A stretch of 63,450 bases of DNA, filler included, from Octopus bimaculoides (lineage: Eukaryota), in the NCBI RefSeq assembly GCF_001194135.2. It is 7 parts of 6 records of this genome, joined end to end, with 100 filler letters (N's around TTAATTAATTAA, not from the genome) between each part and the next. Parts side by side here need not be neighbours in the genome. Positions count along the whole stretch, not along the records: positions 1 to 19,136 come from NC_069005.1; positions 19,237 to 32,431 come from NC_068986.1; positions 32,532 to 41,546 come from NC_069002.1; positions 41,647 to 49,484 come from NC_068990.1; positions 49,585 to 52,276 come from NC_068983.1; positions 52,377 to 58,943 come from NC_068990.1; 1 more part is not named here. One strand, 5' to 3'. This document shows, piece after piece, positions 10,139 to 58,084 of this stretch. Each line of letters begins with the position of its first letter. Positions within the stretch are counted from its first letter, which is position 1. A program made the translations under genes and the position numbers. The notes below the pieces were generated by a model that made no database searches, was not told the DNA's origin, and was given only the letters and a program-made list of their open reading frames with translations.

Positions 10139-10218
10139 GTCTTACAGCTGTTTCTGGGATAAGCCAAGTTGTTGGTTGGTCAGCATATCCGTGCACTGGA
10201 CATTCCGTCATCAGAGAC
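10139..10218 (-). ncRNA. Minimal type-I hammerhead ribozyme motif
   Basis: Minus strand reads GUCU-CUGAUGA-C-GGAAUG...UAUCCC-A-GAA-ACAGCUGU-A-AGAC. Stem I is GUCU/AGAC, stem III is palindromic, the triplet is GUA and stem II is imperfect. Confidence 0.65.
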
Positions 10219-11230
10219 AAGGAATGAATATTTTAGACGATGAAAATTTACAGTTCACAAGAAATAAAATTCACTGTGTATAAGGAATAAAATAGAAGAA
10301 TAAAGTATCAAAATAGATGAATAAAGAGTAAAAGTAATTAGAAGCATATAGGCAGGAGAATAATGTTCACAACTCTTTTTTTTTCAGAGGATATGGATAT
10401 TGGTCCGTACTTCCATGGAGGTACAGATTTTTGGTTAAAATCCGAGGTAGATCCAGGCAATTATTTGGCAGTGTTCTGAATGATGTATTCAAATTGTAAA
10501 TGTGTATAGAGAGCGAGAAAATATGATTGACATAAATGAGTTTTGTGAGTGGATGTATGAGAGAGAAGGAGAGAGAGAGGGGGGAGACAGAAAGAGAAAT
10601 AGGAGAAAGGATTAGAAAATAAGATAGTGGTTAAAGGGAAAAATAAGAATAAAATAGAAACATTAAAATATAAATAAAAAGAATAATAATGAAATAAAAT
10701 AAAAGGTAATGACAGGTATATCCTAAATGAGTTTTCTGAGAGTGTGTATGGGAGAGAGGAGAAAGGGAATAAAAATAGAATAAAATAGCGGTAACAGATT
10801 AAGGATAAGATAAAAATAAATAAATAAATAAAAGCAAAGTTAACGATTTCGATATGTCAGTATTGTATGGGAGTTAGAGCTCAAGCGTTAAAGTTTCAGT
10901 AGAGTAGGGGTAGCATACCAATCTAGGTAAGGTTATAAGGACAATGGTGTAGTGCAGGCATTTAAGATTGTATTTCAAGCTTCATATCCATTCAATGATA
11001 TGAGATAAGGGGTCAAGAATTAAACCTAAAATTCAACATCAAAATTGAAAATTTAAATTTAAAACCAGAACATAAAATTACAAATTACGAAAACTAAAAT
11101 CTAAAAAAAAAAACTATAAAAAATAAAAACTATTGATTTGAAATTAGATTCTAATATAGATAGATAGATAGATAGATAGATAGATAGATAGACAGACAGA
11201 CATATACATATGTGTGTGTGTGTGTAATAT

Positions 11231-11522
11231 TTTATTCTTTTACTCGTTCTGTCACTTAACTGCGGGTCATGCTGGAGCACAGCCTTGAAGGGTTTTAGTC
11301 GAACAAATCGACCCCAGGGCATATTTTTATAAGCCTAGTACTTATTCTACCAGTCCCTTTTGCTGAACCGCTAAGTTACGCGTACGTAAATACTAACACC
11401 GGTTGTCAAGCACTGCTAGGGACAAACACAAACACAAACACAGACACACACGCACACACACACACACACACACACACACACACACACACACACACATATA
11501 TATATATATATATATATATATA
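11231..11522 (-). mobile_element. SINE family A 3' part, cut by a gap
   Basis: Aligns to the 3' half of 44657-45102. Confidence 0.85.
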
Positions 11523-12269
11523 NNNNNNNNNNNNNNNNNNNNNNNNNNNNNNNNNNNNNNNNNNNNNNNNNNNNNNNNNNNNNNNNNNNNNNNNNNNNNN
11601 NNNNNNNNNNNNNNNNNNNNNNNNNNNNNNNNNNNNNNNNNNNNNNNNNNNNNNNNNNNNNNNNNNNNNNNNNNNNNNNNNNNNNNNNNNNNNNNNNNNN
11701 NNNNNNNNNNNNNNNNNNNNNNNNNNNNNNNNNNNNNNNNNNNNNNNNNNNNNNNNNNNNNNNNNNNNNNNNNNNNNNNNNNNNNNNNNNNNNNNNNNNN
11801 NNNNNNNNNNNNNNNNNNNNNNNNNNNNNNNNNNNNNNNNNNNNNNNNNNNNNNNNNNNNNNNNNNNNNNNNNNNNNNNNNNNNNNNNNNNNNNNNNNNN
11901 NNNNNNNNNNNNNNNNNNNNNNNNNNNNNNNNNNNNNNNNNNNNNNNNNNNNNNNNNNNNNNNNNNNNNNNNNNNNNNNNNNNNNNNNNNNNNNNNNNNN
12001 NNNNNNNNNNNNNNNNNNNNNNNNNNNNNNNNNNNNNNNNNNNNNNNNNNNNNNNNNNNNNNNNNNNNNNNNNNNNNNNNNNNNNNNNNATATATATATA
12101 TATATATATATACAGATATATACCTATACGCCATGTGGGAATCTGAGAGTACATTTCAACGGAAATGCCACAGTGTTCGGCGATATATCAAGACATCCAC
12201 TTTAAGATAGATATAAAGATTGCTTTTTGATATTAATACTGCTTCCGCCGCTAATAATACATACAAACA

Positions 12270-12450
12270 TATCCAGATTACAAGTTCAGGTATTTACCTG
12301 TAATTGTTGAGGCATTAGGATATGTAACGCACTGCCTAAATACCAATCTTGAAAAATAAGGTTTCTCAAAACCAGAAAGGAGAATTCTGATTTGAAGACT
12401 ATAGATCCAAGCCATCACTGCAAAAATTTCCAAAAGTTTATCATTTAAGT
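12270..12450 (+). pseudogene. C-terminal remnant of an R4/Dong-like (restriction-like endonuclease) non-LTR retrotransposon
   Basis: Translates as YPDYKFRYLPVIVEALGYVTHCLNTNLEK*GFSKPERRILI*RL*IQAIT, which resembles RLE-clade C-termini; contains stops. Confidence 0.6.
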
Positions 12451-56022: not shown

Positions 56023-56068
56023 GGCGGGATGAATGATTTAGGGCTAAATAACAATATTAAGCCAATCA
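56023..56068 (+). promoter_or_regulatory. GC box plus CCAAT box pair
   Basis: GGCGGG at 56023-56028 and AGCCAATCA at 56060-56068 in non-repeat sequence; motif match only. Confidence 0.25.
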
Positions 56069-56217
56069 CGGGCCCCTCCGAAACCACTCTGTTCGCTGGG
56101 AATAGCAAACAAAGCACACTCAAATTATACTATCCATCTTACTGATGAACTCGAGCTGAAGATATTTTGATTATGAATTTACTGAATTAGGTCTGACCTG
56201 GAACTCCAGCAATGTTG

Positions 56218-56348
56218 TTTCAAATTTTGGCACAAGTCCAGTGAGTGAGGAAGGGGTAGTCGATGATATCGACCGCAGTCTTTGACTGGTACTTTATTTT
56301 ATCATCCCCGAAAGATGAAAGGCAAAGATGACCTCGGCAGTATGTGAA
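56218..56348 (-). mobile_element. SINE family B, 5'-truncated
   Basis: Tail and central domain match 27673-27800. Confidence 0.8.
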
Positions 56349-58047
56349 GGCACACACACACACACACACACACACACACACACACACAGCGGGGAAAAAT
56401 GTCACCAAGCCTTTTGTCCAACGTATTGCAACAAAAAGTGTGCCCTCATAAACACGTGTCTTACATTTATTTGTTATGAACAAATTGTTTATATAACNNN
56501 NNNNNNNNNNNNNNNNNNNNNNNNNNNNNNNNNNNNNNNNNNNNNNNNNNNNNNNNNNNNNNNNNNNNNNNNNNNNNNNNNNNNNNNNNNNNNNNNNNNN
56601 NNNNNNNNNNNNNNNNNNNNNNNNNNNNNNNNNNNNNNNNNNNNNNNNNNNNNNNNNNNNNNNNNNNNNNNNNNNNNNNNNNNNNNNNNNNNNNNNNNNN
56701 NNNNNNNNNNNNNNNNNNNNNNNNNNNNNNNNNNNNNNNNNNNNNNNNNNNNNNNNNNNNNNNNNNNNNNNNNNNNNNNNNNNNNNNNNNNNNNNNNNNN
56801 NNNNNNNNNNNNNNNNNNNNNNNNNNNNNNNNNNNNNNNNNNNNNNNNNNNNNNNNNNNNNNNNNNNNNNNNNNNNNNNNNNNNNNNNNNNNNNNNNNNN
56901 NNNNNNNNNNNNNNNNNNNNNNNNNNNNNNNNNNNNNNNNNNNNNNNNNNNNNNNNNNNNNNNNNNNNNNNNNNNNNNNNNNNNNNNNNNNNNNNNNNNN
57001 NNNNNNNNNNNNNNNNNNNNNNNNNNNNNNNNNNNNNNNNNNNNNNNNNNNNNNNNNNNNNNNNNNNNNNNNNNNNNNNNNNNNNNNNNNNNNNNNNNNN
57101 NNNNNNNNNNNNNNNNNNNNNNNNNNNNNNNNNNNNNNNNNNNNNNNNNNNNNNNNNNNNNNNNNNNNNNNNNNNNNNNNNNNNNNNNNNNNNNNNNNNN
57201 NNNNNNNNNNNNNNNNNNNNNNNNNNNNNNNNNNNNNNNNNNNNNNNNNNNNNNNNNNNNNNNNNNNNNNNNNNNNNNNNNNNNNNNNNNNNNNNNNNNN
57301 NNNNNNNTCGAACAGTCTTTACTGCAATTTTTTAACCCCAAGAGGACATCTCTTCTAGCTGGTTAACGATATATATATATAGGTACACATACACACACAC
57401 ACACACACACACACACACACACACACACACACGCACACACAAATGAGACCCTAACATATTCGAACTTTCTACAATCAGTAGCCAGTGCAGTCCGGTGTCA
57501 GTCACACGTTCTAAATGTCAACGGGGCAATTAACTAATTACAAAGGTTAACGGTGAGTTATATTGCTATTGAGTTTAGTGAACTGTCATGACATTCTCAA
57601 TTGTCGTCGCCTCAAAGTTGCTAGCTGTAAATAGACACTACTTTATGCAAGTGCATGCATGGATGTGATAAAGGCGTTTACATAGGGCTCAGATTTTGAA
57701 CCAACAGTTTTGTGCGGCACTTTGGTCAACATTAGTTCGATAAATGCTTGTGCAAAAACCCGTCCCGTTTTACATATATATCTTTATATAGACATATAGA
57801 GAAAAAAAATCGACAGACAAGATCCAGTGATGCTCAATATAGAAATCATTTGATTTGATCTTACACTCCGAAATCTTTACCGAGGATTAAATCCATGTGG
57901 TAAAGGGTGGATATAAGAGGAATGCAGGTGAGCCGATATGGACATAGTGATGCAAATAAACAAGTGAAACCGCTCGGGCTAAATGTACAAAATATACAAA
58001 CATGATAGATCGTTGACCAAGGACTATTCAATTTTTTTTCTCCGTAT

Positions 58048-58084
58048 TCTTTCTGTTGAAGAGCGTAGCTCGAAACGTTAAAGA
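58048..58084 (+). ncRNA. Hammerhead-like motif with variant core (CUGUUGA)
   Basis: UCUUU-CUGUUGA-A-GAGC-gua-GCUC-GAA-ACGU-U-AAAGA; same family as 36423. Confidence 0.65.

Follow-up and report, generated by a model that had tools for sequence, protein, structure and literature searches.

The window analyzed here is a 63,450-nt stretch of Octopus bimaculoides DNA joined from several records of assembly GCF_001194135.2: repeat-rich animal DNA with 33.7% GC, 5,793 N and 133 tandem-repeat rows. It contains seven minimal type-I hammerhead ribozyme (HHR) motifs, sorted by blastn into five sequence families (F1 to F5), together with a decayed Penelope-like element (PLE). One family, F5, combines a hammerhead with a tRNA-like head, and is the main subject of this report. 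All seven motifs had been proposed, with positions and strands, in a first-pass annotation, and all were confirmed; their C3 positions are 10214-, 25492-, 36427+, 43519+, 47246-, 47516+, and 58053+.

The comparison with dinucleotide-shuffled sequence proposed by the same annotation was run within the window: five type-I HHR descriptors were each applied to the window, to 100 local dinucleotide shuffles, and to the complement. Observed counts were 3, 6, 4, 8, and 4, with shuffle means of 0.01, 0.16, 0.05, 1.49, and 0.09, and under all five descriptors none of the 100 shuffles equaled the observed count. Descriptor B (one core mismatch, stem I at least 4, stem II at least 3, paired stem III of at most 8 nt) gave six matches vs. 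0.16 +/- 0.37 in shuffles (maximum 1); the loosest gave eight (the seven motifs and one at 58787), with a shuffle maximum of 5. No HHR match was found by any of the five in the complement-only control. The 58787 match, seen with the loosest descriptor only, is chance-like and was not counted as a motif.

The motifs share a design, much as had been claimed for them. One extra base after A9, a G10.1-C11.1 pair, and C15.2 are each present in all seven, none of them demanded by the descriptor; stem I is 4–6 bp in all seven (descriptor B forces at least 4). The type-I core (CUGANGA, GAAA, UH) is exact in four motifs; the other three differ at one position each, with U in place of A6 at 36427 and 58053 and G in place of A9 at 47246. 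Five motifs have a perfectly palindromic stem III; at 43519 and 47516 the palindrome is imperfect. Distances from cut site to element 3' end are 94, 166, 86, 66, 46, 76, and 105 nt, in the order of positions given above, so the earlier estimate of about 70–170 nt was roughly right. As had also been noted, four of the seven elements end at (TA)n, here scored within 130 nt, vs. 8.7% at random places (p = 0.0016 per motif, 0.006 per family).

An Rfam search recognized none of the seven HHRs and gave no tRNA match; this, and the ~1.5 chance matches per window that loose descriptors yield, might suggest look-alikes arising by chance in AT-rich repeat DNA. The shuffle counts under all five descriptors, and undemanded features found in seven of seven motifs, refute that idea, to which we assign next to no probability.

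The first-pass annotation counted about five unrelated families. The number holds by blastn; the unrelatedness does not, as a 15-nt 3' half is common to 10214, 43519, and 58407-58448(-) (three matches vs. 0.00 expected). Judged by sequence, the five families thus appear not to be wholly unrelated, F1, F4, and the motif at 58407-58448 sharing this half, and the motifs therefore probably number eight, falling into about three design groups.

The F5 and F2 inserts

The HHRs at 47246(-) and 47516(+) are parts of a single F5 insert:

47153-47164: target duplication, copy 1, identical at 12 of 12 positions to 47628-47639
47165-47344, minus strand: inverted, 5'-truncated copy, starting just before the B box, with HHR at 47206-47251 (A9G) and without tail
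47345-47627, plus strand: full-length copy of 283 nt, with tRNA-like head, (AAT)n(AAC)n tract, body, HHR at 47511-47556, 3' end, and tail
47352-47362, plus strand: RNA polymerase III (Pol III) A box, an exact match to the pattern in PMC8969392
47396-47406, plus strand: B box, two mismatches, at tRNA spacing from the A box
47597-47627, plus strand: tail of 31 nt, in the direct copy only
47628-47639: target duplication, copy 2, enclosing both F5 copies together with copy 1

The inverted copy directly abuts the 5' end of the direct copy, and lacks its first 45 nt. An exact 12-bp duplication was found in 2 of 1086 random window pairs, and the inverted terminal match (60 bp at 95%) had a random rate of 4/219. 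Both copies have a fourth C at 47488, which is missing in 90% of DNA depth, and neither has an AAT present in the consensus of loose ends; these shared peculiarities point to one template. The 3' end has neither poly(A) nor a simple-repeat tail. F5 likely works like a short interspersed element (SINE) but is not a classical member of that class, as it lacks the simple-repeat tail and has a PLE-type end and insertion. Folding gave no support for the head (z 0.8), and the absence of TTTT from F5 is not significant (672 of 1000 shuffles). A second B-box-like stretch at 47493-47503(+), 23 nt upstream of the hammerhead core, may be a second tRNA remnant.

PLE insertions are described as carrying an inverted, 5'-truncated copy directly at the 5' end, often with a tail of 30–40 bp at one end (Craig et al. 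2021, PMC8557442; here and below, statements on published systems refer to the portions available of the sources cited). F5 is linked to PLEs because its inverted, 5'-truncated twin and one-sided 31-nt tail, inside an exact 12-bp duplication, are hallmarks of such insertions.

Alternatively, F5 might be an ordinary tRNA SINE mobilized by a long interspersed element (LINE), with a captured PLE end on which the hammerhead is a passenger, and a twin produced by a rare template switch or later duplication. Target duplications of 12 bp are common for LINE enzymes, which counts for this explanation; so do the single F5 locus and the plentiful LINE and SINE remnants in the window. LINE twin priming, however, inverts the 5' part of a copy without duplicating its 3' end, whereas both F5 copies keep the 3' end, one of them with the tail, inside one duplication. 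Although SINEs are defined as LINE-dependent (PMC3531059), this 3' end lacks the tail noted above and the same layout recurs at F2 without any tRNA head; we consider the LINE explanation quite unlikely.

The F2 insert is composite:

25284-25295: target duplication, copy 1, identical at 11 of 12 positions to 25874-25885
25296-25873, minus strand: composite insert of 578 nt, a partial tandem with a period of 351 nt (109 nt repeated, 94%)
25456-25498, minus strand: HHR F2, with intact core, ACAUGU stem III, and stem I prolonged into a long hairpin
25874-25885: target duplication, copy 2, with one mismatch; 9 of 1086 random pairs are as good

It amounts to 1.3 units of 351 nt, with one HHR only and no open reading frame (ORF). 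The stem I hairpin is predicted at -63.1 kcal/mol (z -6.6). An inverted piece at 25771-25873 spans the unit junction and is ~97% identical to the direct sequence, and the one-sided extension, at ~63 nt, is longer than the F5 tail. F2 is likely a retrozyme-type unit, for which a 351-nt circle or tandem would have served as template through 1.3 rounds of copying. The partial tandem and the junction-spanning inverted piece fit such a template, which Cervera and de la Pena 2014 (PMC4209133) proposed for PLEs and which has also been proposed for retrozymes.

The HHR families could, further, be actively self-cleaving retrozymes that spread via small circular RNAs. The period, intact core, and very stable stem I of F2 recall the non-LTR (long terminal repeat) retrozymes of ~300–350 nt; its insert, however, contains a single HHR rather than a tandem of two, the other families are monomeric and minimal with partly mutated cores, and F5 RNA (see below) is without cut ends and, among the joints listed, without circle joints. 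This strikes us as improbable.

Our preferred reading, to which we give a probability of about 0.68, is that the seven minimal type-I HHRs, standing near insert 3' ends, were likely all written by PLE enzymes with reverse transcriptase (RT) and GIY-YIG domains, and that the abundant, tRNA-headed F5 is likely a SINE of PLEs. The odds are only a little better than even for the narrower proposal that F5 is a true Pol III SINE in on the order of 10^4–10^5 copies, partnered by a PLE and not a LINE, and joining a tRNA head to a PLE 3' end with a dimer-only hammerhead.

Under this proposal, RNA polymerase III would transcribe F5 from its tRNA-like head; the captured PLE-like 3' end, together with which the hammerhead would have been inherited, would be recognized, hammerhead included, in trans by a PLE enzyme; and synthesis from both nicked strands would yield a direct copy and an inverted, 5'-truncated copy with their 3' ends outward. 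With a loopless, 4-base palindromic stem III (ACGU), a monomer hammerhead is predicted not to fold an active core, and cutting would need a dimer. If the monomer cannot close, individual transcripts would escape cutting and be copied at full length, which would fit inserts that retain 46–166 nt beyond the cut site. No cleavage by single minimal HHRs, and low cleavage by dimers, was reported by Cervera and de la Pena 2014 (PMC4209133). Cofolding of HHR dimers gives no information, as strand swapping occurs with any hairpin.

Abundance, transcripts, and the search for a partner

The F5 stretch, or part of it, is present in 20 of 24 listed sequencing runs, and reads of four were aligned to 47300-47900 at 80% similarity, with run X20 (share 0.05) left aside. 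In DNA run X1, the flank has a summed depth of 57.9; the HHR reaches 7.0–8.7 million and the head 1.4–1.6 million, or 1.2–1.5 x 10^5 and 2.5–2.7 x 10^4 times the flank. Flanks before 47345 are heterogeneous across F5 reads (agreement 0.48), and the joints between head and body in run X21 are covered by reads with 40–54 start places per joint. The family is also found in organism B (run X17); metagenome and viral scans returned none, only 23 short chance matches with neither F5 homology nor an HHR. By depth, G predominates at 47549 (80%) and A at 47512 (98%), so that the typical hammerhead of the family has 5 bp in stem I and a perfect ACGU palindrome as stem III; relative to it, stem III of the window copy has decayed at a CpG.

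RNA reads on F5 number 7,466 in run X21 and 5,539 in run X23, with both strands equally covered. The family is transcribed; the transcripts probably lie mostly inside longer host RNAs. At five F5 positions (47350, 47501, 47502, 47510, and 47540), A>G and T>C changes reach 15–25% in RNA, similarly in the two runs, and 0.1–1.4% in DNA run X1, a 10–190-fold rise, where CpG-type changes are only 1.4–5-fold above DNA. This pattern looks like A-to-I editing on both strands, with one site in stem II. Counter to editing, T>A at 47385 is also up 37-fold, a few highly expressed copies could explain the changes, and the DNA and RNA compared come from different samples.

Partner elements were sought in the window and in published collections. 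One PLE is recognizable:

29584-30773, minus strand: decayed PLE, with reverse transcriptase and thumb/linker

It matches RT/GIY-YIG proteins by tblastn (E 6e-16). HMMER with a read-through piece of it found 16 relatives, 14 of them PLE-like, and a profile of these 16 recovered RT proteins, some of which also have a GIY-YIG domain; a word-based protein search with the remnant found nothing, and no endonuclease or HHR was found adjoining it. Of the two decayed PLEs in the first-pass annotation this one stands. The other, a possible PLE at 60100-61200(+), is confirmed by no tool: Pfam, Atlas, and profile searches were all negative. A P-L-G-L-N reading at 57970, 80 nt upstream of an F3 HHR, is the sole P.G[LI]N in six frames; it is an unconfirmed sequence hint of an endonuclease end, and is not kept in the related segment at 58605-58658. 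A CxxC..YIG reading at 57652 was rejected as an F3 endonuclease, since it lies outside the likely insert boundary.

Several results weigh against a PLE-mobilized SINE. At the level of the insert, ARAGORN and Rfam do not call the F5 head a tRNA; the PLE-type insertion of F5 is known from a single locus; neither F5 nor F2 ends at (TA)n; and of seven element ends tested for an inverted copy (F5, F2, F3 twice, F1, F4, and the eighth motif), only two (F5 and F2) have a clear one, with that at 58053 marginal and four without. As to a partner, an endonuclease profile, plain or frameshift-tolerant, scored above shuffles upstream of none of the seven HHRs, and no partner PLE sharing the F5 3' end was found, four window motifs having no match in the supplement of Craig 2021. 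As to copy number, summed contig depth gives an order of magnitude only and no true count, and the HHR part is ~5-fold deeper than the head in both DNA and RNA, so that much of the F5 depth may come from truncated copies or a headless PLE family. At the RNA level, X21 and X23, which as fragmented, unstranded libraries are a weak test of cleavage ends, have no position where many F5 molecules begin or end, no dip in depth over the cut site, and, among the joints listed, no circle joint, and their reads cover the two strands equally, so that Pol III transcription and cleavage of F5 are predictions.

The excess of HHR over head depth is what would be expected if all the motifs were 3' ends of 5'-truncated autonomous PLEs. 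In that case the tRNA-headed form of F5 would be a minor chimeric subfamily, and truncated PLEs would supply most of the depth. Cervera 2014 (PMC4209133) takes most solo motifs as truncated PLEs, and the P-L-G-L-N reading upstream of F3 is in keeping with this. The F5 head by itself, however, is ~2.5 x 10^4 times as deep as the flank; upstream of the HHR part, the loose ends listed for X21, X23, and X1 continue as SINE body (0.74–0.81 agreement), not as coding sequence; and F2 is a closed 351-nt unit without an ORF. We regard truncation throughout as unlikely, though the least so of the alternatives considered here, and retain a PLE-mobilized SINE as the preferred reading of F5.

Other hammerhead elements and repeats

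The remaining hammerhead elements belong to F1, F3, and F4, with a likely eighth motif:

10139-10218, minus strand: HHR F1, with intact core, long loop II, and ACAGCUGU stem III; element end ~10049 at (TA)n
36421-36540, plus strand: F3 insert of 120 nt, beginning at the HHR 36423-36458 (A6U core)
43515-43583, plus strand: HHR F4, with intact core, 7-bp stem II, and imperfect palindrome; element end ~43645 at (TA)n
57772-57821, minus strand: F3 3' end possibly repeated in inverted orientation (53 bp, 77%), reported by one test (E 0.003) but not by another
57822-58184, plus strand: longer F3 copy, with HHR at 58048-58084 (A6U core), ending at (AT)n
58407-58448, minus strand: likely eighth, decayed HHR, with a 3' half like F1 and F4 and a TA tract 55 nt downstream

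The F1, F3, and F4 elements have T-rich 3' parts and end at (TA)n. None has a tRNA head upstream: pairs of A and B boxes occur in the window only at 40699, 47351, and 49107. The simplest reading is that they are PLE ends, truncated on the 5' side, at (TA)n; they are indistinguishable from plain 5'-truncated ends of autonomous PLEs. The proposal that the motifs mark PLE derivatives gains from the match to published PLE HHRs and from two inserts with an inverted copy inside one duplication; its further part, non-autonomy and very high copy number, is supported for F5 only (47345-47627), is plausible for 25296-25873, and cannot be told from truncation in the other three families.

The F3 copy at 36421-36540 is placed inside a CA/TA microsatellite tract of another repeat. 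It is 75% identical to the copy at the 58053 locus, the latter being longer; folding gave no support for an F3 outer stem (z -0.6). A common 58-bp segment (84%) at 57941-57998(+) and 58605-58658(-) connects the F3 element with the eighth-motif element, which have differing hammerheads; it may reflect either shared ancestry or an exchange of modules among PLE-type ends. By eye, ~20 nt of the F3 3' region (58132-58155) look like the F5 3' region (47557-47580) in reverse complement; the likeness is partly low complexity and is absent from the blastn output. At 43207-43301, 210 nt upstream of the F4 hammerhead, there is a 95-bp imperfect palindrome (73%) resembling either a miniature inverted-repeat transposable element (MITE) or a fold-back junction.

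A SINE-like family with a tRNA head and a CA/TA microsatellite inside it has at least 10 copies in the window, which also holds further repeat families:

2332-2829, 4874-5210, 11225-11522, 28232-28590: copies of the CA/TA tRNA-headed SINE-like family
36099-36624, 44655-45106, 59044-59359, and others: more copies of that family
9665-9982, 21680-22080, 41647-41902, 47899-48274, 48795-49111: further repeat family
15087-15629, 18291-19062, 27315-27878, 56217-56354: further repeat family

Decayed Tc1-type transposase (DDE_3 E 1e-14; 82% to P0001) and mariner remnants are found at 53874-54892(-), 32577-32903(-), 45991-46242(-), and 50110-50535(+). Tandem arrays include a 55-bp minisatellite (53006-53237), a 107-bp tandem duplicated across an assembly gap (61291-62372), and a degenerate TTAGGG run at the window end (63360-63422). 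A long inverted repeat at 20375-20620 is probably a MITE; its Rfam MIR841 look-alike is below threshold.

Relation to known systems

Minimal HHRs in the pseudo-LTRs of metazoan PLEs have a helix I of 4–5 bp, an unpaired base after position 9, a G10.1-C11.1 pair, and a palindromic helix III, and thousands occur as solo motifs, with several families per genome (Cervera and de la Pena 2014, PMC4209133). The window HHRs are like these in being type I, with a helix I of 4–6 bp, the extra base, G10.1-C11.1, and a palindromic helix III; the close, opposite-strand F5 pair likewise has counterparts in the opposite-strand pairs 100–700 bp apart described there. The available text of that paper does not list the U at position 6 of two window HHRs, or a tRNA-headed family, which among the window families is F5 only.

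In Hydra-clade PLEs the HHR lies ~100 nt from the end, stem II is flanked by additional bases, and the cut-site base is A or U; Hydra, Naiad, and Neptune PLEs have (TA)n targets, and Hydra-1_Obim, from Octopus bimaculoides itself, is among the HHR bearers (Craig et al. 2021, PMC8557442). Window elements share with this clade the HHR near the 3' end, the additional bases beside stem II, the A or U at the cut, and the (TA)n targets, and F5 shares the inverted copy and one-sided tail; Hydra-clade PLEs, however, encode RT and endonuclease, which F5 and F2 do not.

Among non-coding elements, the SINE-like retroposons SM-alpha and Sj-alpha of Schistosoma resemble F5 in placing a hammerhead after a Pol III promoter (PMC6765202). 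They form tandem repeats, however, and their HHR is canonical and cleaves, where F5 is a dispersed monomer with a PLE-type inverted insertion and a minimal HHR predicted to cut only as a dimer. Non-LTR retrozymes are non-coding, with type-I HHRs in units of ~300–350 nt (Cervera and de la Pena 2020, PMC7229834; 10.64898/2026.07.22.740005), which F2 fits in size and partial tandem; they are defined by tandem HHR units and circular RNAs, whereas the window families are monomeric, and the descriptions available mention no tRNA head. Li et al. 2026 (10.64898/2026.07.22.740005) propose that retrozymes derive from PLEs and are non-autonomous. Other non-autonomous PLEs are MRC1 and butterfly elements, and a curation guide mentions that retrozymes might be classed as a new type of SINE.

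Octopus tRNA-derived SINEs, named OK, OR1, and OR2, were reportedly described by Ohshima and Okada in 1994. OR2 has been called a CORE SINE (PMC4758252). Like F5, the tRNA-derived SINEs of SINEBase (PMC3531059) are <700 bp with A and B boxes and very many copies; they depend on LINEs and have simple-repeat tails, whereas F5 ends in a PLE-like HHR segment. In the literature searched, with the consensus files of Repbase, Dfam, and SINEBase outside the comparison, no tRNA-headed family was found that is dispersed and combines a minimal HHR with insertion of the PLE type; the F5 sequence may already have a catalogue entry as a plain SINE.

That animal genomes hold many PLE-type hammerheads each is the ordinary, already published picture, and the ecosystem of ribozyme-bearing elements envisaged by the first-pass annotation was largely anticipated by the solo HHRs of 2014, the octopus PLE of 2021, and the retrozymes of 2026. 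The new part is the F5 insert, whose tRNA head the annotation had missed, along with the inverted copies and duplications. If F5 is PLE-mobilized, the definition of a SINE, now tied to LINE enzymes, would widen, and the idea of retrozymes as the SINEs of PLEs would gain a case with a real tRNA promoter. F5 would also be among the most abundant families of natural ribozyme motifs, and the simplest handle on what a PLE reverse transcriptase recognizes in trans. At 283 nt and with many dated copies, it would make testable which part of the RNA a PLE requires and how the twin and one-sided tail arise; its copies would also bear on whether the minimal hammerhead cuts, or serves as a handle for dimerization or recognition.

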